From positions 96,489-160,488 of the forward strand of contig DVML01000025.1 of the NCBI GenBank assembly GCA_018714965.1: a DNA stretch of 64,000 nucleotides, given 5' to 3'. The first letter of the stretch is position 1. Each line of letters opens with the position of its first letter. This DNA comes from Candidatus Fimihabitans intestinipullorum. Its GTDB lineage: Bacteria > Bacillota_I > Bacilli_A > RF39 > UBA660. Below are positions 10,860 through 56,073 of this stretch, one piece after another. The translations under genes were made by a program, and so were the position numbers. The notes under the pieces were generated by a model that was given only the letters and a program-made list of their open reading frames with translations, ran no database searches and was not told the origin of the DNA.

Positions 10860-12656
10860 ATGTCGAAAATTAAAATTATGGATGAAATACTTGCAAATAA
10901 AATCGCAGCAGGTGAGGTTGTTGAACGAAGTGCATCTGTCGTCAAAGAGCTCGTTGAAAATAGTATCGATGCTGGGAGTACGGAGATCAAAGTAGAAGTG
11001 ATCGATGCTGGAACGAAAGAAGTCAAAGTAACAGATAATGGTGTTGGAATGGAAAAAGAAGATGCGATGCTTGCTTTTTCCCGGCATGCGACGAGTAAAC
11101 TTTTACGTGAGGAAGATTTATATCACATTGCAACATTAGGGTTCCGTGGAGAAGCGCTTCCATCGATTGCCAGTGTGAGCGAAATCACCTTAAAGACTTC
11201 AACAGGAGAAATTGGTACTGTCGTTGAATTAAGTGGAGGACATGTTACTTCTGTTACACGTGGAGATGCCCGCAAAGGAACGATTTTATCGGTTCGTAAC
11301 TTATTTTATAATACCCCTGCAAGATTAAAGCACATTAAAAGCTTACAAGCAGAACTTGCCGTTATGACAGATTATATGAATAAAATTGCGCTATCTCATC
11401 CGAAGGTCAAATTTACATTTTCCAATAATGGGCATATTATTTTAAAGACAGATGGATCAGGAGATATTTTAAAGACAATTCACAATATATATGGATTAGA
11501 AATCACAAAGAAAATGCTCTTTGTAGAAGGGGAAAATGATGATTACACAGTAGAAGGATATATTTCACTTCCAGAAGTACATCGTTCAACTAGAAATCAT
11601 ATGGTAACGCTCGTCAATGGGAGAGTCGTAAGAAACATGGAACTCAACCGTGTCATCAACGACGCTTATCATTCGTATAAACCAGATAATCGTTATCCAA
11701 TTGTCGTTTTGAATATCGAAGTAGATCCAAGCTTGATCGATGTAAATATTCACCCGACGAAGCAGGATATCAAATTTAGTAAACTCGATCAATTATCAAG
11801 TTTAATTACAGAAATGATCCGTACAAAGTTATCGAAGAGAACATTGATTCCTCATATTAAAGTAGAAGAAGAGGAAAAAGTAGTAAAAGAAAAGCCAAAA
11901 TACGAAACATTGACGCTTGATTTTGATATGCCAGTAAGTGAATCAGAAACGACGTATCAAGTGAACGATGACTTCATTTCCGCTCCAAAAGAAGAAGAGG
12001 AAAAGGAAGAAGAAAACGATGCAATTTTTACAGAAGATGTAGAAGAAAAGAAAGAACGTCTACCTATGATTTATCCAGTGGGTGTCGTACATGGAACTTA
12101 CGTTATCTGTCAAAATGAACTTGGTATGTACATGATGGACCAACACGCAGCCAAGGAACGCGTCAATTACGAAAAATTTAAACGTGAGATGGGAGAACCG
12201 AATCAGACTGCGATTGCGATGTTAATTCCTCTTACGATCGAACTATCGAATCAAGAATTTATGTTATTAAAACAACACATGGAAGTGTTGGAACGTTTAA
12301 AATTTAAAATCGAAGAATTTGGTGTAAATTCTATTATCGTAAAAGAACATCCGACTTGGTTACCGAATGGGTATGAAGAACAGGCAATTCGAAAAATTAT
12401 CGAAATCGTATTGCAGATCGGCGATAAATTTTCAATCGAGAAATTTAACGAACGCGTTGCGACGATGATGAGTTGTAAACTTGCAATTAAGGCAAACGAC
12501 TATGTATCGACGGAAGAATTAGAACAGTTGATTGCAGATTTACGCAATTGTGATAATCCTTTCCATTGTCCACATGGTCGTCCGACGATTATTTTTTACT
12601 CTAATTACGACTTAGAAAAATTATTTAAAAGAAGTGGGTTTGATCAATTAGTTTAA
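10860..12656 (+). CDS. mutL: DNA mismatch repair protein MutL
   Basis: N-terminus ANKIAAGEVVERSASVVKELVENSIDAG (GHKL ATPase) and C-terminal endonuclease region CPHGRP. Confidence 0.95.
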   Translation: MSKIKIMDEILANKIAAGEVVERSASVVKELVENSIDAGSTEIKVEVIDAGTKEVKVTDNGVGMEKEDAMLAFSRHATSKLLREEDLYHIATLGFRGEALPSIASVSEITLKTSTGEIGTVVELSGGHVTSVTRGDARKGTILSVRNLFYNTPARLKHIKSLQAELAVMTDYMNKIALSHPKVKFTFSNNGHIILKTDGSGDILKTIHNIYGLEITKKMLFVEGENDDYTVEGYISLPEVHRSTRNHMVTLVNGRVVRNMELNRVINDAYHSYKPDNRYPIVVLNIEVDPSLIDVNIHPTKQDIKFSKLDQLSSLITEMIRTKLSKRTLIPHIKVEEEEKVVKEKPKYETLTLDFDMPVSESETTYQVNDDFISAPKEEEEKEEENDAIFTEDVEEKKERLPMIYPVGVVHGTYVICQNELGMYMMDQHAAKERVNYEKFKREMGEPNQTAIAMLIPLTIELSNQEFMLLKQHMEVLERLKFKIEEFGVNSIIVKEHPTWLPNGYEEQAIRKIIEIVLQIGDKFSIEKFNERVATMMSCKLAIKANDYVSTEELEQLIADLRNCDNPFHCPHGRPTIIFYSNYDLEKLFKRSGFDQLV

Positions 12657-12712
12657 CTATTGTCTTTCTATTTGTCAGGTGTTATAATGATAAAGCTTGA
12701 AGGAGGTGCACC

Positions 12713-12928
12713 ATGAAGATAAAATTATTTGAAGCTGTTACAAACCGCATTCCGATGCTTTCTCATTTAACGACGATTCGAACTCCATTATCTATTGATG
12801 AGAAGATCAATATGAAACATGGGGGAAATGGATATCGTTCCATTTATGAACAGAGAAAAGAAGCTTCTAAGGCACGAAATGCATATGTAAAAACATATAT
12901 GACTCCAAATGGTAGAAGAGGAAGATAA
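12713..12928 (+). CDS. small hypothetical protein (71 aa)
   Basis: Strong RBS GAAGGAGGTG 6 nt before the ATG, with a terminator immediately downstream. No family recognised. Confidence 0.5.
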   Translation: MKIKLFEAVTNRIPMLSHLTTIRTPLSIDEKINMKHGGNGYRSIYEQRKEASKARNAYVKTYMTPNGRRGR

Positions 12929-12952
12929 AAAGCATCCTGAAGATGCTTTTTT
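12929..12952. terminator. bidirectional intrinsic terminator
   Basis: Stem AGCATC 12931-12936 / GATGCT 12942-12947, flanked by an A-run and a T-run. Confidence 0.75.
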
Positions 12953-13121
12953 ATTGTAATCTTTTCGTTAGTTCTAAATAGTGTTTGATATGTAAATGTG
13001 CCATTTGATGTAACAATAGTTTCATTTCTGGATCTTTGATTTTCGCTTCATAATCATAACATTTTTGAGCACATTCAAAATTCCAGTCTAACATATTTCC
13101 AATCTCTTTGATAGGATCCAT
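12951..13121 (-). CDS. small hypothetical protein (56 aa), absent from the ORF track
   Basis: My translation is MDPIKEIGNMLDWNFECAQKCYDYEAKIKDPEMKLLLHQMAHLHIKHYLELTKRLQ. The ATG at 13121 is preceded by AAAGGGGGG. The ORF ends at the shared terminator. Confidence 0.45.
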   Translation of the reverse strand: MDPIKEIGNMLDWNFECAQKCYDYEAKIKDPEMKLLLHQMAHLHIKHYLELTKRLQ

Positions 13122-13232
13122 TTGATTCCCCCTTTATTTTGTTATGAGAAAATGAATTTATTTTTATACAATAAAATCTACAAAAGATAAATGACATATG
13201 ATATAATATGGATATCGTGAGGAGGATGTTCT

Positions 13233-18983: not shown

Positions 18984-19081
18984 TGTGTAGTACCTCATGT
19001 TGCTACAACCGCACGAACCAGGTTATAAACACGTTAGTGTGCCTGATAGGCGAGTCTTAGAAAATAAAGAAGGAGGTCAAT
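18984..19081 (+). promoter_or_regulatory. candidate L21 (rplU) leader RNA
   Basis: About 100-nt GC-richer 5' UTR with helices such as TGTAG/CTACA and GCAC/GTGC. Occupies the same position as the Firmicute L21 leader. Not verified against a model. Confidence 0.3.
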
Positions 19082-19381
19082 ATGAAAGCAGTTATTGAAA
19101 CTGGTGGAAAGCAATATTTAGTAGAAAAAGGTAGTGTTATCTACGTTGAAAAAATGGATGCTGAGCCAGGAAAGAAAGTAAATTTCAATGTACTTATGGT
19201 AGATGGAACTGTTGGTCATCCATATGTTACAAATGCAGAAGTAACTGGTGAAGTTGTAAAACACGGAAAACAAAAGAAAGTTGTTGTTTACAAATACAAC
19301 GCTAAGAAAAAATACCGTAGAAGACAAGGACACCGTCAACCATATACAAAAATTGAAATTAAATCTGTAACGACAAAATAG
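19082..19381 (+). CDS. rplU: 50S ribosomal protein L21
   Basis: N-terminus [24 protein letters not shown] and C-terminal [15 protein letters not shown]. Confidence 0.97.
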
Positions 19382-19382
19382 T

Positions 19383-19703
19383 ATGATACAGATTCATATC
19401 AAAGAGACGGAAAAAGAAGTAAAAGAAATTACGATTTCAGGACATGCTGGATATAGTCATGCAGGGAATGATATCGTATGTGCTGCAGTAAGCAGTATCG
19501 TGATTACTTCGATCAATGCAATTTTGAGATTGGATCAAGATGCGATTCAATATGAAGAAGATGAAGGTTTTATTTCAATTAACGTATTGAAGCACGATAA
19601 AGTAACGGTTACACTCATTACGAATTTAATCGAATTACTGATCGAATTACAAAACGATTATAAAAAGTATATAAAAATTAATAAGGAGGTGTCCTCATGT
19701 TAA
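19383..19703 (+). CDS. prp: ribosomal-processing cysteine protease Prp
   Basis: [20 protein letters not shown] His/Cys dyad. Located between rplU and rpmA. Confidence 0.9.
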
Positions 19704-19990
19704 AGTTATTACAATTGAATATTCAATTATTTGCACATAAAAAAGGGCAAGGTTCTACGCAAAACGGACGTGACAGTATCTCTAAACGTTTAGGAGCAAA
19801 AGCTGCTGATGGAGAATACGTAACAGGTGGATCTATTTTATATCGTCAACGTGGAACGAAAATTTACCCAGGAAAGAACGTAGGTATCGGAAGTGATGAT
19901 ACATTGTATGCAAAAATTTCTGGATATGTCAAATTTGAACGTGTTGGAAAAGATAGAAAACAAGTTAGTGTTTATCCTGAAAGAGGATAA
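19697..19990 (+). CDS. rpmA: 50S ribosomal protein L27 with cleavable N-terminal extension
   Basis: The [20 protein letters not shown] propeptide ends in the Prp cleavage motif F|A. The L27 core follows. Confidence 0.95.
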
Positions 19991-36490: not shown

Positions 36491-38197
36491 ATGGATGAAG
36501 TATATGAAATGTATCGATGGAAGCATTGGATGAACGAGCGAAAATTTTCAAGTTTAGAGGATTTGTTACGGGAGTCTCCTATTTCTTATGAGACGATATT
36601 GTCCTATGGAAAAGAAATTTTCTTTCTCGAACAGTACGATTTAGATCGTTCTTTTCAAGAGTGTCCGGTCTATTGGGAAAATTTACAACAAATTTCGTTT
36701 GAAGAGGTTGAACCCGGATTGGAAGAAGCAAAGAGAAGATGGAAAGTTTTTCAAGATTATGGGCACATTCTAACGATGGATGATATGATCGAAATGGTAA
36801 AAAGTGAACATGAACGAAAACAGTTGATTTCTCTTTTGAAAAAGGAACCTTCTTTGTTGTATATGCAAAAAGATGGAGAAACTTTTTTAGAACATATTAT
36901 AGTTGAGTATATTACTTCTATTAAAGGAGGCCACTTAGATTTAGCGCATCTTCATTTAAAGCAGATGATAAAAACTTTTGTCGAACTGTTCGAAGACTAT
37001 ACCATGGAAGTTCCACGACACTTTTTGCCTGATTTATGGACGGCTAAAAAAAGGTATCAGCGTAGAGGAAATACAATTCGAATCAATGGGAAGAATGAGC
37101 CTATGTTTGAACTTTATCGACAAGTGCGAGAATCGTGCGACTATTTAACATCGCTTCCTCAAATGATCGAGCACTATCAACTTTATGAACGCTGGAAACA
37201 AGAGGAGCTGGAGAATCATCTCTCGTCGATAGAAGTTCCTGTATTACCTTCGCAAGAAGAACCAATTATTCTTACGGTAGATGCTCATAGAGAATCTTTA
37301 TTAGACGATGCGTTTGCACTTGAAACAAACGATAAAAAAGAGACGATTTTACGTGTTTATATCGCTGATATAACACCTTATTTAAAAAAGTCATATCGCC
37401 TTTTAAAACATTCTTTAGAATGGAATCGTACGATATATTTACAGAGTGGGCAAAATAAATTGGTATTTCCACTGCTACCTGTTGACTTTTGCGAGGAACA
37501 TATTTCGCTACGAGAAGGAAAAGAAAGAAATGTTTTATGCGCGACATTTACGTTTGATCAAGATGCAAATTTAAAGGATGTCACATACGATCGAAGACAA
37601 ATCACGGTTACAAAAAATTTAACTGTAGAGGATACGGAAGATGTACTAGAACATGGGGGAGAGTATCAGGATCTTTTAACAAAAGCAGTGGCATTGTCAG
37701 AAAAATTAGAGAGCAAACATAAGAAGCGGAATATCTATCAGGAGAGATATTCGATTTCGAGAAGCGAAAAGTTACCTTCTCAAAAATTCATTCGCGAGTT
37801 TGCTGTATATGTTAATTCGAAAGCGACAGAATTGATGAAAGCGTGTCTCTATCAAAACAATACAGATGTTTATAGTTCGAAAACGGTTCGACCAAATGTT
37901 CGAAGAGAGATGGATCGTTTCTATGTCTCTACACAATCTCTTGAAAATAAAGGGTTACAGTTGCAAAAGTACGCTACTGTCACAAATCCTATGAGAAATG
38001 CGATTTCGATGATTTCTTCTTATTTGTTAAAAGAACAAGCTATCGATCATTGTGATAAAGAGACATTGCGATTTTATCAGGAGATTCTTCCTTATTTTGC
38101 ATCGCATTTGAACATGTCTCGTAAAAAGGAAAATGATATTAAGACGCATTATCGAAAAATCATGTATCGTAGTTCACAAAACAAAAGAAATGCATAA
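36491..38197 (+). CDS. divergent RNB (RNase II/R-like) domain protein lacking recognisable CSD/S1 domains
   Basis: Ordered degenerate RNB motifs: LLDDAFAL, VYIADITPY...WNRTIYL, FPLLP...ISLREGKERN, YATVTNPMRNAISMISSYLL. Confidence 0.6.
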   Translation: MDEVYEMYRWKHWMNERKFSSLEDLLRESPISYETILSYGKEIFFLEQYDLDRSFQECPVYWENLQQISFEEVEPGLEEAKRRWKVFQDYGHILTMDDMIEMVKSEHERKQLISLLKKEPSLLYMQKDGETFLEHIIVEYITSIKGGHLDLAHLHLKQMIKTFVELFEDYTMEVPRHFLPDLWTAKKRYQRRGNTIRINGKNEPMFELYRQVRESCDYLTSLPQMIEHYQLYERWKQEELENHLSSIEVPVLPSQEEPIILTVDAHRESLLDDAFALETNDKKETILRVYIADITPYLKKSYRLLKHSLEWNRTIYLQSGQNKLVFPLLPVDFCEEHISLREGKERNVLCATFTFDQDANLKDVTYDRRQITVTKNLTVEDTEDVLEHGGEYQDLLTKAVALSEKLESKHKKRNIYQERYSISRSEKLPSQKFIREFAVYVNSKATELMKACLYQNNTDVYSSKTVRPNVRREMDRFYVSTQSLENKGLQLQKYATVTNPMRNAISMISSYLLKEQAIDHCDKETLRFYQEILPYFASHLNMSRKKENDIKTHYRKIMYRSSQNKRNA

Positions 38198-38210
38198 GAT
38201 ATAGTAGAAT

Positions 38211-38238
38211 TTGACAATTCTTTTGGTTTTGATATAAT
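38211..38238 (+). promoter_or_regulatory. near-consensus sigma-A promoter driving the large ncRNA
   Basis: TTGACA 38211-38216, a 16-nt spacer, then extended -10 TGaTATAAT 38230-38238. Confidence 0.75.
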
Positions 38239-38244
38239 TATCTT

Positions 38245-38841
38245 GTTTATGAAATGGCGCATTATTCTAGTCAATTTCATTTATTATGAAGGCGGGGCTA
38301 AAAATTCGCTAAAGAGCATATCTGTGAAACCTCTTGTGCTTGCTTCATACGCCCAGTTTGGGGTGAGTGCTGGTGGGAAAGGATATTGGGCGCCTGTAAT
38401 GGCATACAGTTCCGACCCAATATCTGTGGAGACCTAATCTTGTTATCTGCCTACACACAGCGATTGTTGATGGACAGATGACGACTTAGGATGAAACCTA
38501 CTATGTGGCTAGCGTTACGAGTAGTGTAGCTTGTCTTGCGTGAGTATCGGGGATGATTGACAACCGAAATAGTTTATGGCCAAAATTACTTCGGCATCGC
38601 AATTTGAAACGATACTTGCAAAAAAGAATTAATAATAAATAATTGTCGAGGAAAACTCCTAGAGTGTAGCTTAATATAGGATTGCAGTGTGCACTAAGTG
38701 GCAATCAAGTCATGTATTCGGTGACGGTACATCTATTTCTTTCAAGGGGAACCGCTTCTCTGGTAACGGAAAGTAGAAATAGGGGAAATCCTACTTGACC
38801 TAAAGGCGCAAAGTTTACTATATTAACTGCCGTTTTTTTTT
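38245..38841 (+). ncRNA. large structured non-coding RNA candidate (about 600 nt), OLE-like by size and context
   Basis: Has its own promoter, no credible ORF, visibly higher GC than other spacers, multiple helices, and ends in a T9 run 21 nt before the next ATG. Confidence 0.6.
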
Positions 38842-38862
38842 GAATTGAATTTAGGAGAAAGT

Positions 38863-39450
38863 ATGAATCAGAAACAGAAAGAATTTGTGAAACGATTAAA
38901 ATCGAATAAGAAGAAAAAAGTGGTTACGAATATGGGATGGGTTTTAGCAATTACCATCATGGCGTTTTTTATTTCGATTATATTCTCTTTTATCTCCGAG
39001 AGTATTTTACCGAATGTTCCTGTATTGATTGGTGTAATCGTTTTAATCGTGTTTATCTTGATCGGAGTACTATTCGATATGATCGGTGTTGCAGTGACGG
39101 CGGCAGATGAAAAACCATTTCATTCGATGAGTGCACAAAAGGTACGAGGAGCGCGTGTAGCGATTACTTTAAAACGGAATGCAGATAAAGTAGGTTCGTT
39201 TTGTAACGACGTGATCGGAGATATTTGTGGAATCATCTCCGGATCTGCAGGTGTCATGGTAGCCCTCTCTCTTTCGGAATCATTCGGAGTTGAGCAAGTG
39301 ATATTATCCTTGTTAGTAACAGGACTTACTGCAGCTTTTACAATAGGAGGAAAGGCACTTGGAAAAGGAGTTGCCATAGCAAAAGCAAATATGATTTTAT
39401 ATGAGTGTTCAAAAGTGATCTCGTATTTTTATCGGCCAAAGCGATCGTAA
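38863..39450 (+). CDS. 4-TM DUF21/CNNM-like membrane protein (OapA-like by context)
   Basis: 195 aa. Basic N-terminus, four hydrophobic helices, loop AADEKPFHSMSAQKVRGARVAITLKRNADKV, and a DVIGD motif. RBS AGGAGA. Confidence 0.75.
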   Translation: MNQKQKEFVKRLKSNKKKKVVTNMGWVLAITIMAFFISIIFSFISESILPNVPVLIGVIVLIVFILIGVLFDMIGVAVTAADEKPFHSMSAQKVRGARVAITLKRNADKVGSFCNDVIGDICGIISGSAGVMVALSLSESFGVEQVILSLLVTGLTAAFTIGGKALGKGVAIAKANMILYECSKVISYFYRPKRS

Positions 39451-39461
39451 TCGCTTTTTTT
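39440..39461 (+). terminator. intrinsic terminator after the membrane protein gene
   Basis: Stem AGCGAT 39440-39445 / ATCGCT 39450-39455, followed by a T-run. Confidence 0.75.
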
Positions 39462-39538
39462 AATGCATTAAATGAATTGTGTGACATAAGTTAAAAGTAT
39501 GGTAAAATGATGCTTTATCGATCAAAGGAGATGGCGAG

Positions 39539-40246
39539 ATGAACGAACAAGATTTTTTATTGAGAATCATCACTTGTTTCGCGCTTAGCTTTTGTATTGG
39601 TTTAGAAAGACAATGGCGTCGTCGAACGATTGGTCTTCGAACGAACGTGCTTGTTTCTATAGGTGCCTTTTTGTTTGTCGCAACAGGAATCGGTAGTACG
39701 GGTGATGTGACGAGAATTCCAGCCCAAGTTGTATCGGGAATTGGATTTTTAGGTGCAGGTGTTATTTTAAGAGATGGTGCGAATATCAAAGGACTCAATA
39801 CGGCTGCCACACTCTGGTGTAATGCGGCGATTGGAGTTATGACGGCAACAGGATTATTGTTAGAAGCAGCAATTGGAACAGTGTTCATTTTGATATCTAA
39901 TATCGCACTTCGCTTTATTGGGCGTAAGATGATGAAAAAGCAAGTGACGAAAGAAGAGTATACCTTAAAAATAGTTTGTGTAGAAGAAAAAGAGGTAATT
40001 TTACGTGCATTGTTATTACAACTATTTAATGCTGAACATATCACGCTTACCGATTTAGAAAGTCGAACGATCGAAAATGAAGTTGTTAAAATTTATGCGA
40101 CTGTCCACGTCGTAGGAGGAACAAATCATACGATCGAGCAATTGGTGAATCGCATTAGTATGGAACCAGGTGTCACGAATATAGGATGGAAAAAACTAGA
40201 ACAAAAAACGAAGGAAGAGATCGAGGAAGAAGAGGAAGAGAATTAA
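39539..40246 (+). CDS. mgtC: MgtC/SapB-family protein
   Basis: GLERQWRRRTIGLRTN, GIGFLGAGVILRDG and GLNTAATLWCNAAIGV, plus a C-terminal ACT-like domain and an acidic tail. Confidence 0.9.
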   Translation: MNEQDFLLRIITCFALSFCIGLERQWRRRTIGLRTNVLVSIGAFLFVATGIGSTGDVTRIPAQVVSGIGFLGAGVILRDGANIKGLNTAATLWCNAAIGVMTATGLLLEAAIGTVFILISNIALRFIGRKMMKKQVTKEEYTLKIVCVEEKEVILRALLLQLFNAEHITLTDLESRTIENEVVKIYATVHVVGGTNHTIEQLVNRISMEPGVTNIGWKKLEQKTKEEIEEEEEEN

Positions 40247-44234: not shown

Positions 44235-44636
44235 ATGAAGTATTCAGTTCAAAGACAGACGATCTTAGAAGATGTAAAGGAACGTCATGATCATCCGACA
44301 GCTGAGATGATCTATGCATCCGTTCAACGGAAAGTGCCGAACATTAGTCTAGGAACAGTCTATCGTAATCTTAATCAGTTGGTAGAACATGGTATCATCA
44401 AAAAAATAGCAACGATGCAAGGTGGAGATCGATTCGATTATAAAATGGAAGATCATGCGCATGTACATTGTACAGTATGTAATCAGCTATTTGATTTGCC
44501 GTATGAATCACTTCACGCAATTGATCGGACGATCGAAGATGAGACAGGATATCACGTTTTATCTTACGATATCGTCTTTCGCGGAATATGTCATGAATGT
44601 CAAAAGAAAAGAGAAGGAGAAGAGTTATGGAATTAA
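44235..44636 (+). CDS. perR: Fur-family peroxide-responsive repressor (PerR-like)
   Basis: Winged helix ([12 protein letters not shown]), [10 protein letters not shown] and CHEC. Lies upstream of rubrerythrin. Confidence 0.8.
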
Positions 44637-45166
44637 AAGGATCTAAGACAGAACAAAACTTAATGACAGCGTTTGCTGGAGAAAGCCAAGCAACAAACAA
44701 GTATACTTACTGGGCAAGCAAAGCAAAAAAAGAAGGGTTTGAACAAATTGCAGCCATCTTTACAGAGACAGCTGGGAACGAGAGAGAGCATGCTAAATTA
44801 TGGTTTAAATTATTAGAAGGTGGAGCAATCAAATCAACAGAAGAAAATTTAAAAGCTGCTGCTGAAGGAGAAAACTACGAGTGGACAGATATGTATGCAA
44901 CGATGGCAAAAGAAGCAAAAGAAGAAGGATTCGATCATATCGCATTCCTATTTGAAGGCGTTGCAGCAATCGAAAAGCGTCATGAGGAAAGATATAAAGC
45001 ATTACTTGCTAATGTAAAAGAAGAAAACGTATTCAAGAAAGAAGCTCCACAAATGTGGATTTGTAGAAACTGTGGACACGTACATTACGGAGAAGAAGCT
45101 CCAGAAGTATGTCCAGTATGCGCACATCCAAGAGCTTACTTTGAGATTTTAAAAGAAAATTATTAA
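44627..45166 (+). CDS. rbr: rubrerythrin
   Basis: Diiron four-helix bundle ([21 protein letters not shown]) plus a rubredoxin tail CRNCGH...CPVCAHP. ATG 44627 follows GAAGGAG. Confidence 0.93.
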
Positions 45167-45209
45167 TAGAAAAGGGAATGATCCCTTTTTCTTTGAAGGA
45201 GATAGAAGT

Positions 45210-45584
45210 ATGGTAAAATTTTATCGATGCAATCATTGTGGGAATATTGTCATGATGGTACATGATTCAAAAGTTCCTATGATGTGTTGTGGTGAAAAAA
45301 TGACTGAACTTGTTGCTGGAAGTACAGATGCTGCAGTAGAAAAACACGTACCGGTTGTAGATATCAAAAGTAACTCTGTAGAGGTAAGTGTAGGAAGTGT
45401 TATGCATCCCATGGAAGAAGAACACTATATTATGTGGATCTATTTAGAGACAAATCGCGGTGGACAAATAAAATATTTGAATCCAGGAGAAGATGCGATG
45501 GCAACATTCTTATTAAATGATGAAAAGCCAAAGGTTGTTTATGCATATTGTAATTTACATGGTCTTTGGAAGAAAGAAATATAA
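45210..45584 (+). CDS. dfx: desulfoferrodoxin (superoxide reductase)
   Basis: N-terminal CNHCGN...CCGE desulforedoxin-like site plus centre II ligands (EKHVPV, HPMEEEHYI, CNLHGLW). Confidence 0.9.
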   Translation: MVKFYRCNHCGNIVMMVHDSKVPMMCCGEKMTELVAGSTDAAVEKHVPVVDIKSNSVEVSVGSVMHPMEEEHYIMWIYLETNRGGQIKYLNPGEDAMATFLLNDEKPKVVYAYCNLHGLWKKEI

Positions 45585-45761: not shown

Positions 45762-46618
<857 letters not shown>

Positions 46619-46620
46619 TT

Positions 46621-46744
46621 AGCGCCAGAACCAAAGGGTTGACGAGGTTAGTAGTTATCGAAATTTCGGCGGATGCTGCTACGGACGTGTATTCGTAAGA
46701 ATTATGACAAACTTCCAAATCAAGATGGGAACAAAACATAATTC
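46621..46744 (+). ncRNA. glmS ribozyme: glmS ribozyme (GlcN6P-dependent self-cleaving riboswitch)
   Basis: AGCGCCAGAAC...GACGAGG...UUAUCGAAAUUUCGGCGGAUG core, P2.1 UAGUAG/CUGCUA, and P4 GAATTATG 46699-46706 / CATAATTC 46737-46744. Lies directly upstream of glmS. Confidence 0.9.
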
Positions 46745-46772
46745 ATGCACATTTTTTAAAGAAGGGATTTAT

Positions 46773-48551
46773 ATGTGTGGAATTATTGGATATGTAGGAA
46801 AGAAGGAAAAGACACTTTCTGTTTTATTGGATGGCTTAACAAATTTAGAGTATAGAGGATATGATTCAGCTGGTATTGCTTATTTTGATTCAGGACAGAT
46901 TGAAGTTGTAAAGCAAACAGGAAAAATTTTGGCATTGGAGAACAAGATAAAAAAGCAGATTGATACATATTGTGGGATTGGTCATACGAGATGGGCAACA
47001 CATGGAAAACCGACCGTTTTAAATGCGCATCCTCATCGTCACGGAAAGTTTGTGCTTGTCCATAATGGAATTATCGAAAATGCCGATGAATTAAAGATGC
47101 GGTTGCTAGAAGAAGGATATGCGTTTTATTCGGATACTGATACAGAAGTTGCAGTTGCTTTGTTAGATTCTATCTATCGAAGGCGTTGCGATGTTCTTGT
47201 GTCAATTCATGAGCTGATGGAATTGTTAGAAGGTTCGTATGCTTTTGAAATTTTATGTGAAGATTATCCGAATGATATTTATGTTGCTAAAAATGCTAGT
47301 CCGCTTATTATCGGGATAGGATCACAAGAAATGTATGTAGCAAGTGATGTACCTGCAATTTTACAGGAAACTTCAAAGTATATGATTTTAGAGGATATGG
47401 AATATGGTAAGATTGAAAAGAATGGAGTTCATGTTTACAATATGAAGCAAGAAGAAATTCCGAAAGCAATCTTAGAATTTGAGGGAAGCATGGATAGTGC
47501 TAAGAAAAACGGATATGCTCACTTTATGTTAAAAGAGATGATGGAAGAACCAGAAATTTTGAAAACCTTATTTCATTCTTATCGGAAAGATCCGGAGAGA
47601 TGGAAAAGCAATCTTCCGGACTTGAAAAAGTATAGAGAGATTGATATTGTCGCATGTGGAAGTGCCTATCATGCAGGGATGATAGGGAAGTACTATTTAG
47701 AAACTTATGTAGGAATTCCTGTCACGGTATCTCTCGCAAGTGAGTATCGTTATCAGACGTTGTTTTCTCGCCGGGACAAATTAGTCATCTTCGTCTCTCA
47801 ATCAGGGGAGACAGCTGATACGCTTGCTTGTTTAAAACTCGTGAAAGATCATGGTATGGATACACTTGCAATTGTCAATGTTGTGGGAAGTTCTATTGCA
47901 CGTGCTGCTGATTATGTTTTATATACGAAGGCAGGATACGAGCTTGCAGTCGCAACTACGAAGGCGTATATTGCGCAAGTGGCGGCATTTCTTTTCATTG
48001 CACTTGCTTTTGGAAAGGTAAAATTAGAACAATTTGATATCGAAAATTTATATGACATTCAAAAGAAGCTTTTAGAAAACCATTATTCAGAAATTATAAA
48101 CTATTTAGCGAATGCTTCGCGTATCTTCTTTATTGGGCGACAGGTCGATTATGCAATTGCGATGGAAGCATCTCTAAAACTAAAAGAGATTTCTTATTTA
48201 ATGAGCGATGCTTATGCGGCGGGTGAATTGAAGCATGGTACTATTTCTTTAATCGAAGAGGGAACGCCGGTAGTAGCGATTGTGACAGATCCAAAAGTTG
48301 CGGAAAAAACAATCAGCAATATCAAAGAAGTAAAAGCTCGTGGTGCTTACGTTGTCTTGGTGATTTCTTCCGATTTAGATGACTCGTTTGATTGGTGCGA
48401 TCAAAAAATCGTAATTCCGGAAGTTTCAAGTATTTTGATGCCGCTTGTTACGATATTACCGTTACAAATGCTTGCATACGATATCGCACTGAACAAAGGC
48501 TGTGATATCGATCAACCTCGTAATCTCGCTAAATCAGTTACAGTAGAATAA
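46773..48551 (+). CDS. glmS: glutamine--fructose-6-phosphate aminotransferase
   Basis: The protein begins with the MCGIIGYVG Ntn N-terminus, carries two SIS domains and ends in C-terminal KSVTVE. The track start at 46704 lies inside the ribozyme. Confidence 0.97.
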   Translation: MCGIIGYVGKKEKTLSVLLDGLTNLEYRGYDSAGIAYFDSGQIEVVKQTGKILALENKIKKQIDTYCGIGHTRWATHGKPTVLNAHPHRHGKFVLVHNGIIENADELKMRLLEEGYAFYSDTDTEVAVALLDSIYRRRCDVLVSIHELMELLEGSYAFEILCEDYPNDIYVAKNASPLIIGIGSQEMYVASDVPAILQETSKYMILEDMEYGKIEKNGVHVYNMKQEEIPKAILEFEGSMDSAKKNGYAHFMLKEMMEEPEILKTLFHSYRKDPERWKSNLPDLKKYREIDIVACGSAYHAGMIGKYYLETYVGIPVTVSLASEYRYQTLFSRRDKLVIFVSQSGETADTLACLKLVKDHGMDTLAIVNVVGSSIARAADYVLYTKAGYELAVATTKAYIAQVAAFLFIALAFGKVKLEQFDIENLYDIQKKLLENHYSEIINYLANASRIFFIGRQVDYAIAMEASLKLKEISYLMSDAYAAGELKHGTISLIEEGTPVVAIVTDPKVAEKTISNIKEVKARGAYVVLVISSDLDDSFDWCDQKIVIPEVSSILMPLVTILPLQMLAYDIALNKGCDIDQPRNLAKSVTVE

Positions 48552-48561
48552 AAGAGAAAAG

Positions 48562-49011
48562 TTATTTTAAGCTTTTCTCTTTGTTTTTCATTTTTGCTTT
48601 AATTTCATCGCTATCGTAAGTGATATTTTTCTCTCCCAAGGTATATACGAGAATACGGTTGAGTTCCTCTTCTAAATTGGAAAAAGAAATTCCCGTATCT
48701 GCTTCGAAGGTTTCAATAGAAGAGTGTTCGTATTCTTTTGGAATGTGTTTAATCCAAAAGTCCCAAATCATCTTCATAATCAGATCTTCACGATTTCTAG
48801 GAATATCTAATGAAAGAATACTTGAAAGATGGTGGGTTAAATATGTCAATTGAAATTTCATTCTAATATTTTTTCGCGCATATAAATTTAAAAAATACAT
48901 TGGCATATATTGCTTTTCTAGATATATACTTTCATATATAACATAAATTTCTTTGATGTTGTTTGGATATAAAGAAAAAATTTGATGTTCTCGATTTAAA
49001 GTATAAGCCAT
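48562..49011 (-). CDS. hypothetical protein (149 aa)
   Basis: ORF with RBS AGGAAAGGAG upstream, convergent with glmS. No family recognised. Confidence 0.5.
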   Translation of the reverse strand: MAYTLNREHQIFSLYPNNIKEIYVIYESIYLEKQYMPMYFLNLYARKNIRMKFQLTYLTHHLSSILSLDIPRNREDLIMKMIWDFWIKHIPKEYEHSSIETFEADTGISFSNLEEELNRILVYTLGEKNITYDSDEIKAKMKNKEKSLK

Positions 49012-49173
49012 AGAATTTCTCCTTTCCTATATCGTGTTATTCCAGTATATTTTATCATGATTTTTCGATGTTGAACAGAGTTGACAAAAATTTACAAAAA
49101 CCGATATTTCTAGATTGTCAGACTTTATTTGGAGTGTTATAATAAAACTATAGAATAGTAGGAGGAAAGAAAT

Positions 49174-53663: not shown

Positions 53664-54996
53664 TCAAAGTAAAAAGTTGTGGTACTTGGTTGGCGTCAGT
53701 CTAAAAAGAAAAGTGAAAACTAAATGGTTTGTTATTGCCAATATTTTACTTGCGGCTATGATTATAGGTGTTATGAATATCGATACGATTATTACTGCAT
53801 TTGGTGGTGATTTTAACGAAAAGACGACAGTTTATGTTTTAGATGAGACCGATGAAAGTTACGAGTTATTTCAGTCTCAAATGGGGGTTATAGATCAAGC
53901 AACAGAAGAGGTACAAAGTGATGAAGAAGAACCGGAATATATAGTAAAAAAATATCAAAAATCAGAAAAAGAATTAAAACAGGAAATTAAAGACGACAAT
54001 AAAAAAATAGGTGTCATCATATCTCCTTCTGAACAAAATGTCGTAGATGTTACGTTGATTAGCAATGAATTTTTAGAAATGTTAGAAACTCAGAGAATTA
54101 CATCAGCAATCAATAATACAAAGACAGCACTCGCAATTTCAAAATCTTCTATTTCAGAAGAAGAACTAGCAGCGATCTATGATCCAGTTAAAATCAATCG
54201 AATCTATTTAGATGAATCGAAAACAGAAGAGGACGAGTCATCTCAAATGATTATGGGAATGGTGTTTCCAATCATTATTTTACCATTTTTCATGTTGACA
54301 CTATTCTTAGTTCAAATGATAGGAGCGGAGGTCAATGATGAAAAGACGACAAGGGGAATGGAGATTATCATCGCAAATGTTTCTCCATCGACACATTTCT
54401 TTTCAAAGGTGATTGCTGGAAACACTTTCGTCATCATGCAAGGAATCTTATTGGTTGCTTATGCAGGGGTCGGATTTATCACGAGAATGGTGATTGGTGG
54501 AGATCAAATCATAGGTAGATTTGGAGATGAAATTGGATCAGTTGTTTCCAATGTTATGGGTAGTGGAATTGGACAGTCTCTTATCTATATCATTCCTCTT
54601 ACCTTAATTTTGATGATTCTTACATTTATTGCTTATTCGCTTTTAGCTGGAATTTTAGCAAGTATGACAACGAATATCGAAGATTTTCAACAATTGCAAA
54701 CGCCAATTGTAATTATATCGTTAGTAGGATATTACTTAGCTACGCTTTCTAGTATGTTCGGAGGATCTCTTTTCATCAAGATATTCTCTTATATACCATT
54801 TATTTCAGCTATTTTATCACCATCTTTATTACTTGTAGGAGAAATAGGAATTATTGATATTATAATCTCTATTGTGCTCGTGGTGATTACAAATTTCTTA
54901 TTAGTTAAATATGGATTAAAAATATATAAAGTAGGAATCTTAAATTATTCTTCTAAAGGATTATGGAGGAAGATGTTTAAAGCTTTAAGGGACTAA
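53653..54996 (+). CDS. ABC-2-type permease (NatB-like)
   Basis: N-terminal TM helix, a large extracytoplasmic loop, and 5-6 C-terminal TM helices. Overlaps the ATPase gene by 11 nt. Confidence 0.8.
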   Translation: MKSNQSKKLWYLVGVSLKRKVKTKWFVIANILLAAMIIGVMNIDTIITAFGGDFNEKTTVYVLDETDESYELFQSQMGVIDQATEEVQSDEEEPEYIVKKYQKSEKELKQEIKDDNKKIGVIISPSEQNVVDVTLISNEFLEMLETQRITSAINNTKTALAISKSSISEEELAAIYDPVKINRIYLDESKTEEDESSQMIMGMVFPIIILPFFMLTLFLVQMIGAEVNDEKTTRGMEIIIANVSPSTHFFSKVIAGNTFVIMQGILLVAYAGVGFITRMVIGGDQIIGRFGDEIGSVVSNVMGSGIGQSLIYIIPLTLILMILTFIAYSLLAGILASMTTNIEDFQQLQTPIVIISLVGYYLATLSSMFGGSLFIKIFSYIPFISAILSPSLLLVGEIGIIDIIISIVLVVITNFLLVKYGLKIYKVGILNYSSKGLWRKMFKALRD

Positions 54997-55047
54997 TGTC
55001 CTTTTTTCTTTGCAAATTTATAAAAATGTGTTAAAATGGTATTGCAT

Positions 55048-55133
55048 GCAAGGGTGGTGGAATGGTAGACACGCTACTTTGAGGGGGTAGTGGACTTACG
55101 TCTGTGCGAGTTCAAATCTCGTCTCTTGCACCA
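55048..55133 (+). tRNA. tRNA-Leu (anticodon GAG), CCA encoded
   Basis: Hand-folded cloverleaf: acceptor GCAAGGG/CTCTTGC, anticodon stem CTACT/GGTAG with loop TTGAGGG, long variable arm, and T-arm GCGAG-TTCAAAT-CTCGT. Confidence 0.9.
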
Positions 55134-55170
55134 TTAGAAAATTAGTCGAACTAATCGACTTTTATATATA
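55125..55170 (+). repeat. direct repeat copy 1 (tRNA-Leu 3' end plus downstream hairpin), att-like
   Basis: The core CTTGCACCAT is identical to 56989-56998. The following ~35 nt match the second copy at roughly three quarters of positions. Confidence 0.7.
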
Positions 55171-55225
55171 AAGGTTAATTTCGGTTAACCTTTTTTTGCT
55201 TACCTGAAAGGAGTTCTAAACATTT

Positions 55226-55303
55226 ATGGAAAATGTAACAATGTATTGTAGAGTCTCAACGGAAGATCAAGTTTGTGGAAGTTATTTTTTAGGGGACTAT
55301 TAG
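55226..55303 (+). pseudogene. N-terminal stub of a serine recombinase (25 codons)
   Basis: MENVTMYCRVSTEDQ matches the catalytic YxRVSTxxQ motif. The frame stops at TAG 55301. RBS AAAGGAG. Confidence 0.6.
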
Positions 55304-55589
55304 AAAAGTTAAGAAATATTTTTAAAGAAGAATTTATTTAATCATCTCACTAAGGTCATTAAAAATTTTAAAATAGGATGAAAATTATAAGTTTTAATCA
55401 TTATTTATCCTTAATATCAAACTATGAAGTGGTGTTGCGGTGCCGCTTTCTATATAGTATTTACATCTTATAAAAATTGCTATAATATCGCATAAACTAT
55501 AGGATGTACTGTCCGAATGTAGTACAATAAATATATAAATTATTTTATATGGGAGATTTTATGAAAACATTTTTTTAGGAAAAGAATGT

Positions 55590-55952
55590 GTGGCATTATT
55601 ACTGATTAAATCAAAAAATCATTTTTTTCAAGAAAGCTTTATTACAGTATCTGAACTTAATCGATTTGACCGTTTTTTACAACAAGAATTTAATAATCGT
55701 AATCTAGATGTTGTGATTACTTCCAATACATTAAATAGTGAAGGTTTTAATATAATGGGTGAAGTTATTATGACTTCTGATGCTTGTTGTTTCAATTTGG
55801 ATATGCTTCCGGTAAATATATTAACAGTTCTATATGATTCTAATTTAATTGTAGGTTTTTTGATGCAGTTTGAAAGTGGAAAATTAGAAACACTAGAAAG
55901 AAAAAAAGAAGCAGTTCCTAAACTATGTAAAAAAGTAGTGTCTAGTAGTTAA
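55590..55952 (+). CDS. hypothetical protein (120 aa), islet cargo
   Basis: ORF with a GTG start and a weak RBS. No family recognised; the start is uncertain. Confidence 0.35.
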   Translation: MALLLIKSKNHFFQESFITVSELNRFDRFLQQEFNNRNLDVVITSNTLNSEGFNIMGEVIMTSDACCFNLDMLPVNILTVLYDSNLIVGFLMQFESGKLETLERKKEAVPKLCKKVVSSS

Positions 55953-56073
55953 GCACTATAAATTTATATTAGTTAGTGGTTATTACTATCAATTTAGCAA
56001 AGTCACGATTTGATAGAGAAAAGAATGATTTGAAATGGAAATATGATACAATGAATATGAGAGGAGTTAAACT

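Follow-up and report, generated by a model that had tools for sequence, protein, structure and literature searches.

A full-length OLE RNA gene followed by a predicted oapA gene in a contig of Candidatus Fimihabitans intestinipullorum

Introduction

OLE (ornate, large, extremophilic) RNA (Rfam family RF01071; Puerta-Fernandez et al. 2006) occurs in Bacillota that are typically anaerobic or extremophilic, and the literature describes OLE and OapA, its obligatory membrane partner with four helices, as almost completely mutually inclusive. About 25% of OLE nucleotides are more than 97% conserved (PMC12265935). In this study, we analyzed a stretch of 64,000 nucleotides from Candidatus Fimihabitans intestinipullorum (GenBank assembly GCA_018714965.1, contig DVML01000025.1, positions 96,489 to 160,488 of the forward strand), referred to as the window, whose coordinates are used throughout, and identified in it an OLE RNA gene, ole, with a predicted oapA gene directly downstream. 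An earlier note on this DNA, made from the letters alone, had taken an OLE RNA/OapA locus as its leading guess, and had added that an undescribed RNA class might fit equally well.

Several contacts of OLE have been mapped. Partial OapA-binding sites have been assigned to two palindromes that lie within or close to P2 and P4a (PMC12265935), and the OapB site consists of a GNRA tetraloop together with a bulge of one nucleotide in P13 (PMC7936274). OapC has no representative in about 55% of OLE hosts (PMC11332333). The loop L9.3 is reported to alternate between GGCC, GAUC and AGCU and takes part in the intermolecular kissing loop B3 of the OLE dimer (PMC12286853). OLE variants 1 and 2, from the TANB77 and RF39 gut lineages, have P7, P8 and P9 shortened or absent and have lost the OapB site in P13 (PMC11332333). 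As for OapA, a DxxxD motif separates it from CNNM domains, the OapA proteins form the next-best cluster after MpfA when searched with the CNNM model, and the structure 7M1U is a top match for OapA of Halalkalibacterium halodurans (PMC11332333). Its two strictly conserved aspartates are those mutated in the dominant-negative PM1 allele (PMC7936274).

Results

We scanned the whole window against Rfam 15. The segment 38238-38849 matched RF01071 with 428.8 bits (E 1.4e-122) over model positions 1-616 of 616, far above the gathering score of 50 bits. This was the check that the earlier note had proposed for the spacer, and it bears out the leading guess, as does the downstream protein, whose sequence and predicted fold agree with what is published for OapA. 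We estimate at about 97% the probability that 38238-38849 is ole, encoding a full-length OLE RNA, and that the next gene, 38863-39450, is oapA; there is no counter-evidence to the OLE identification. The two genes are as follows.

38238 to 38849, plus strand: ole gene, full-length OLE RNA (Rfam RF01071), 612 nt, found with cmscan
38853 to 39450, plus strand: predicted oapA gene, 195 aa, with ribosome-binding site (RBS) AGGAG at 38853-38857, ATG at 38863 and stop at 39448-39450

When the Rfam structure was projected onto the window, 153 of the 159 model pairs were present, of which 141 (92%) were canonical. In an independent MAFFT alignment of 72 OLEs (A2), 108 of the columns for the 612 window positions were invariant and about 108 more were nearly so; in these columns the window has the consensus base. 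More than 100 invariant positions are shared with the OLEs of Virgibacillus, Anaerophilus and Clostridia. Scoring the Rfam structure on A2, with 500 shuffles as well as slid pairing partners as controls, gave the following values.

Cells paired: observed 86.8%; shuffled 71.2%; partners slid 37-45%
Covariation score: observed 0.484; shuffled 0.193; partners slid about 0.11

Further, 122 of 153 pairs vary on both sides, and none of the 500 shuffles reached any observed measure. Since paired cells and covariation both exceed those of the shuffled and slid controls, the OLE structure is under selection in this clade and is not merely matched in sequence. Covariation among homologous spacers, which the earlier note had named as a check, is thus strong. 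In two of the related loci (L002 and L005), the aligned helices contain no helix-breaking substitutions.

We assigned P numbers to Rfam positions from the nucleotide numbers given in PMC9723947 and PMC7936274, so the mapping of the elements below is approximate.

38253 to 38274, plus strand: conserved 5' segment AATGGCGCATTATTCTAGTCAA, columns invariant or nearly so in A2, with the palindrome CTAG at 38267-38270
38330 to 38376, plus strand: long hairpin, P5/P5.1 by approximate mapping, model 93-139, 20 pairs
38381 to 38425, plus strand: three-part hairpin, P6 region, model 144-190, 13 of 13 pairs canonical
38433 to 38490, plus strand: hairpin with variable loop, P7 by approximate mapping, model 198-255, 15 of 17 pairs canonical
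38498 to 38524, plus strand: hairpin, P8 by approximate mapping, model 263-285, 11 of 13 pairs canonical, helices 7-8
38533 to 38628, plus strand: long multi-part arm, P9 arch, model 288-384, 30 of 35 pairs canonical
38669 to 38828, plus strand: 3' domain, P12-P15, model 436-595, closing helix 38669-38679/38818-38828

In the hairpin at 38330-38376, 19 of the 20 pairs are present (18 of them standard, G-U included), and its loop CGCCCAG equals the consensus; across A2 this helix (helix 2) is 91.7% paired, with 11 pairs varying on both sides. Changes on both sides also occur in helices 3-5 of the P6 region. It is here that the helix 38382-38390/38416-38424, enclosing 38394-38398/38405-38409, had been drawn by eye, and these are true consensus helices. 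Two other helices drawn in the same way did not hold: AAGAG and CTCTT (38312-38316/38331-38335) are complementary, but the model pairs 38330-38334 with 38372-38376, and AAGTAG and CTACTT (38771-38776/38791-38796) are complementary, but the model pairs ACTTGA at 38793-38798 with TCAAGT at 38705-38710. The P7 loop has a 14-nt insertion relative to the model, and 15 of the 17 pairs of helix 6 (P7) vary on both sides. Helices 16-21 of the 3' domain are 92.7-99.7% paired, every pair of helices 16, 19 and 20 varying on both sides.

The motifs expected to contact proteins were then located. P13 (38712-38732) reads ATGTA, a bulged T at 38717, TCG, the loop GTGA at 38721-38724, CGG and TACAT, so that both P13 features required for OapB binding are intact; a second GNRA hairpin, with the loop GTAA, lies at 38754-38774. 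The segments flanking the k-turn region at the base of P5 align with the consensus. A second CTAG occurs in conserved sequence at 38659-38662, and we propose that the two CTAG motifs, at 38267-38270 and 38659-38662, are putative palindromic OapA sites.

The end loop of the P9 arm, L9.3, carries the palindrome GGCC at 38578-38581, and the corresponding tetranucleotide in relatives varies among the palindromes GGCC, GTAC, AGCT and GATC. A GTAC loop was seen in about 15 relatives; it is not among the palindromes GGCC, GAUC and AGCU in the available excerpt of PMC12286853. As GTAC is self-complementary too, it would be consistent with the kissing-loop model. In five other loci (L015, L025, L036, L038 and L065), the distal P9 with the palindromic dimer kissing loop is absent (A2 columns about 430-490).

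Compared with OLE RNA as described, the window copy has the same length (about 612 nt), spans the whole model, and shares the stems P5-P10 and P12-P15 by our own mapping, the conserved single-stranded segments, the P13 GNRA loop with its bulge and the L9.3 palindrome, as well as an oapA gene directly downstream and an anaerobic host of the Bacillota. Because the P7, P8 and P9 hairpins (by our own mapping) and the P13 hairpin are all present, it belongs to the "full-length" type of Fernando & Breaker (2024, PMC11332333), and not to variant 1 or 2. It differs from the OLEs of cultured Bacillota in being AT-richer and scoring about 100 bits lower. Like the whole gut-Bacilli clade, it lacks the 4-bp hairpin at model positions 424-435, the sole missing element; this hairpin is present in the loci of Clostridia and Virgibacillus.

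Next, we examined the protein encoded downstream, whose ATG lies 13 nt past the end of the OLE model match. It has 7262 homologues; the nearest are 97% identical and are encoded on contigs from gut metagenomes in which the gene order is the same as here. The DxxxD motif that had been read as DVIGD is at residues 116-120, within CNDVIGDICG, and both D116 and D120 are invariant in a 34-sequence alignment. The only domain match was CNNM/DUF21 (PF01595) with 19.1 bits, below the cut-off of 28.4 bits; the protein is CNNM/DUF21-like in this weak sense, as had been claimed, and such a weak match is itself a published property of OapA. Pfam and NCBIfam contain no curated OapA model, and membership was judged by the published criteria, by alignment and by fold search. 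A phmmer search of PDB gave solely a weak CorB match (7m1t, E 0.15); a solved OapA structure was sought in this search and not obtained.

The AlphaFold2 model (pLDDT 80.7) predicts long helices at residues 24-48, 54-80, 107-141 and 145-173. The six best Foldseek matches in PDB were CNNM-type transmembrane domains of archaeal and bacterial CNNM/CorB/CorC proteins, including MtCorB (7m1t, 7m1u) and CorC (7cff, 7cfg), with probabilities of 0.99-1.00 and TM values of 0.46-0.56. The protein resembles OapA in its gene position directly 3' of ole, its length of about 200 aa, four long hydrophobic helices, the lack of soluble domains, the strictly conserved DxxxD, the weak CNNM similarity, and a predicted fold that superposes on the CorB transmembrane domain; no difference from OapA was detected. 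Judged by its sequence and predicted fold, which agree with all published criteria at these levels, the 195-aa protein is OapA. The transmembrane fold and the weak sequence similarity are also shared with the Mg2+ transporters CNNM, MpfA, CorB and CorC. However, because its PF01595 score is sub-threshold and CBS-pair and CorC/HlyC domains are missing from its 195 aa, the protein resembles these transporters but is not a member of them. It also has four helices, whereas CorB has three per monomer (PMC11332333), and it has an RNA partner and the DxxxD that CNNM domains lack.

We then looked at the linkage of the two genes in relatives. A scan with one genome per species gave 80 loci, mostly from metagenome-assembled genomes (MAGs) of uncultured gut "Bacilli" or "Tenericutes"; Clostridia contribute a few, and Virgibacillus and Anaerophilus are also represented. 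The contigs closest to the window come from gut MAGs that bear the label uncultured Bacilli. Of 84 loci searched by nhmmer with the window RNA, 78 have an OLE homologue upstream of an OapA homologue, in most cases abutting it. The two do not abut in six related loci, where 0.4-2.4 kb separate OLE from the OapA homologue downstream. When 20 loci were tested with RF01071, 16 were confirmed to contain a full-length OLE (365-527 bits), the gut clade scoring 365-437 bits and cultured Bacillota about 526.

Four loci (L011, L035, L063 and L067) have an OapA homologue at about 3001, of 53-55% identity, tightly flanked by protein genes; single-sequence nhmmer, profile nhmmer and the Rfam model all detected no OLE in the 3 kb to each side of it. 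A hidden divergent OLE near these homologues was considered and rejected, as profile nhmmer of the four loci gave zero matches. Their OLE may lie elsewhere in the genome or be absent.

The transcription signals around the two genes are listed below.

38211 to 38238, plus strand: sigma-A type promoter of ole, -35 TTGACA at 38211-38216, 16-nt spacer, -10 TATAAT at 38233-38238
38833 to 38841, plus strand: T9 run at the OLE 3' end, which in the Rfam consensus is a weakly conserved U-run (model 601-608)
39438 to 39467, plus strand: terminator-like hairpin AAAGCGATCGTAATCGCTTT with T-run, overlapping the end of oapA, hairpin at 39438-39457

The promoter at 38211-38238, earlier described as near-perfect, scored 12 of 12 against the consensus, with an additional TG at 38230-38231, two bases 5' of the -10, and ole transcription would start near 38245. 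Of 72 relatives, 59 (82%) have a promoter of at least 10/12 in this position ahead of OLE, compared with 3.3% of random 72-nt windows, and 69% have one of at least 11/12, compared with 0.75% of random windows.

At the other end, the T9 run lies 21 nt ahead of the ATG at 38863, as had been claimed, and 43 of 79 relatives have a T-rich run at this place too. The imperfect hairpin reported together with it did not survive: the sequence before T9 folds with -5.3 kcal/mol (z 0.14), no better than shuffled sequence, and the terminator scan reported no site at the OLE 3' end or T9. An intrinsic terminator at the OLE 3' end was therefore rejected, there being no significant hairpin by scan or by folding; going by the sequence, the T9 run itself might still have a terminator or attenuator role. 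The hairpin at 39438-39467 was the sole terminator-like site found by the scan in 37900-39700, and probably represents the end of the ole-oapA unit.

Another promoter-like sequence, TTGACC-18 nt-TATATT (38795-38824, plus strand, 10/12), lies inside the 3' part of OLE. This match is probably coincidental, because its -35 belongs to the invariant OLE segment CCUACUUGACCU; in principle, it could provide a start for oapA independent of OLE.

The spacer that holds ole (38198-38862, 665 nt) extends from the stop of a 568-aa RNB-like open reading frame (ORF) at 38197 to the ATG at 38863. The window has 26 spacers of 60 nt or more, and this one has the highest G+C content (39.2%), in line with the earlier remark that it stands above the others; the OLE part has 40.5%, compared with 34.5% for the whole window. 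A 10-nt direct repeat, AGTGTAGCTT, had been pointed out at 38523 and 38663; both copies were found, within conserved OLE segments, whereas 0.06 matches would be expected by chance. The spacer also contains a 64-aa sense ORF (38243-38437) and a 67-aa antisense ORF (38501-38704), neither with an RBS by reading of the sequence. Among 72 relatives, just 7 keep the segment homologous to the sense ORF free of stops and just 15 that of the antisense ORF, so neither ORF is conserved, and the view that the spacer contains no credible ORF stands.

Public gene calls on three near-identical contigs of relatives place a 62-aa gene inside the 5' part of OLE (L001 5381-5569, L002 5387-5575, L003 5386-5574), the equivalent of 38243-38437 in the window. 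As it has no Pfam hit and the ORF is unconserved, the 62-64-aa "hypothetical protein" annotated within OLE is spurious.

The ole-oapA pair is flanked by dnaB, dnaI and the RNB-like gene upstream and by mgtC, rsmE, a gene of unknown function and mtaB downstream; the window thus encodes DnaB/DnaI-type primosome proteins. DnaB, DnaI, RNB-like, MgtC, RsmE and MtaB accompany OLE-OapA in only 4-5 of 84 loci, all species-level relatives, and a functional link of these neighbours to OLE-OapA was rejected as unsupported with adjacency so limited. Published OLE clusters, in contrast, contain isoprenoid and DNA-repair genes, and mgtC, rsmE and mtaB are not named in the 2025 OLE review. H. halodurans ole is located inside a long polycistronic operon, whereas the window ole has a stand-alone promoter.

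Pfam recognises part of an RNB domain (85.8 bits, residues 260-449) in the 568-aa protein encoded between dnaI and ole (36491-38197, plus strand). Its scores of 49-68 bits are far under every NCBIfam RNase II/R cut-off (369-642), and species-level relatives were the only ones in which it was seen; it may be an exoribonuclease-like protein that has diverged or degenerated. The gene mgtC (39539-40246, plus strand; MgtC/SapB family, 117.6 bits) is separated from oapA by an 88-nt spacer, which contains a promoter-like GTGACA-16 nt-TAAAAT (39481-39508, plus strand, 10/12).

Elsewhere in the window, an oxidative-stress cluster (44235-45581, plus strand) comprises a PerR/Fur-type regulator, a rubrerythrin-like ORF and desulfoferrodoxin (PDB 1dfx, E 9e-32). 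Such a cluster is typical of anaerobes and supports an anaerobic host, and the host agrees with those described for OLE. A glmS ribozyme (RF00234, 71.4 bits; 46610-46754, plus strand) lies upstream of an ORF of about 600 aa ending at 48548, presumably glmS. A ribosomal protein L21 leader (RF00559, 53.3 bits; 18997-19067, plus strand) precedes rplU, a 106-aa ORF and rpmA (19082-19378, 19383-19700 and 19697-19987), with L21 and L27 confirmed by PDB sequence matches. The other long spacers are 54994-56073 (1080 nt), which contains tRNA-Leu(GAG) at 55048-55133, 12654-13232 (579 nt) and 48549-49173 (625 nt); in the window scan, the remaining sequence of these three gave no Rfam match at the gathering threshold.

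Discussion

Taking the signals of the locus together, we propose that the strong sigma-A promoter ahead of ole drives its transcription, that part of the transcripts would continue beyond the U-run (38833-38841) into oapA, for which no convincing separate promoter was seen, and that the ole-oapA transcription unit would stop at the hairpin 39438-39457. By analogy with characterized systems, OapA dimers would bind OLE and keep the RNA at the cell membrane, while OLE would form dimers through conserved contacts, among them the L9.3 kissing loop with its palindrome (GGCC here). Further binders may be OapB at the P13 GNRA loop and bulge, OapC at the k-turn, and bS21. From the intact P13 site, OapB is predicted to be encoded in this genome, and from a published anticorrelation, MpfA paralogues are predicted to be few or lacking. 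The OLE particle may aid tolerance of excess Mg2+, cold, short-chain alcohols and poor carbon sources. These functions are drawn from PMC12265935, PMC11332333, PMC9723947 and PMC12286853.

The leading idea for what the particle does is a role in divalent-cation handling, because OapA is distantly related to the CNNM/MpfA Mg2+ transporters. Recent cryo-EM work reportedly suggests that OLE spans the membrane.

Some points weigh against this interpretation of the locus. All functional statements are transferred from experiments in H. halodurans and Clostridium acetobutylicum. Among the best 60 of 186 PDB matches of the window's concatenated small ORFs there was neither OapB nor OapC (YbxF); these 60 were L21, L27, desulfoferrodoxin and a PerR-type regulator. 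The co-transcription of ole and oapA, the start site and the 3' end are predicted from sequence signals, and the U-run at 38833-38841 has no significant hairpin 5' of it when its folding is compared with shuffles. The 424-435 hairpin is missing, and since it is missing throughout the gut-Bacilli relatives, its loss is a lineage trait and not decay.

Other explanations of the spacer were also weighed. That it belongs to an undescribed class of large structured RNA, OLE-like only in size and context, was the fallback of the earlier note; nothing favors it after testing, and the full-length RF01071 match of 428.8 bits and the invariant positions common with the OLEs of Virgibacillus, Anaerophilus and Clostridia rule out the hedge, leaving a chance that we regard as negligible. 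It is scarcely more credible that the spacer encodes small proteins. Both ORFs exist, and one has been called as a gene in three relatives, but neither has an RBS, few relatives keep the segments stop-free, nothing in Pfam matches the called gene, and the nucleotides are highly conserved and co-vary as RNA helices. A decaying, non-functional relic of OLE would explain the score of 429 bits, compared with about 526 in cultured Bacillota, and the one small hairpin missing. Such decay is nevertheless very improbable: 92% of pairs are canonical, the protein- and dimer-contact motifs are intact, the promoter is perfect, oapA is intact with all invariant residues, and the score is typical of the clade.

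A further possibility is that OLE is mainly a cis-acting leader or attenuator of oapA, with the U-run gating read-through, and not a stable trans-acting RNA. A promoter stands before OLE but no convincing one before oapA, and the T9 run close to the oapA ATG, with a T-rich run in over half of the relatives scored (43/79), would suit such an arrangement. Yet the U-run lacks a significant hairpin before it, six related loci have OLE 0.4-2.4 kb from the OapA homologue, and OLE of H. halodurans is an abundant, stable, membrane-localised RNA that acts in a ribonucleoprotein particle (PMC12265935). We therefore consider a mainly cis-acting role unlikely, though less so than the three explanations above; leader and trans-acting roles of OLE are not mutually exclusive. 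A full-length OLE RNA with its predicted oapA gene thus remains our interpretation of the locus.

OLE is among the largest bacterial non-coding RNAs without a known biochemical function, so each annotated copy is of some comparative value. The window copy adds little in this respect, being a typical full-length member recognised by the standard Rfam model, from a clade already included in a GTDB-wide survey; the OLE-OapA system found here is already known and is not a new RNA class. The practical gains are that the small gene called inside OLE can be struck as spurious and that a 195-aa membrane protein, unnamed or annotated as "hypothetical", can be named OapA.

Considering the clade-wide loss of the 424-435 hairpin, the loss of distal P9 in some members and the four OapA homologues without OLE within 3 kb, we tentatively raise the idea, which we think more probably wrong than right by some distance, that the gut-Bacilli clade forms a natural reduction series of OLE, with the window copy at its full-length end under a dedicated strong promoter. 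In a weaker version, the lineage-specific adjacency of oapA and mgtC may reflect a functional Mg2+ link; given the Mg2+ link of OLE the adjacency is suggestive, and being confined to species-level relatives it is not conserved evidence. If the reduction series is real and goes beyond variants 1 and 2, it could help to show what in OLE, and in its linkage to OapA, is dispensable.

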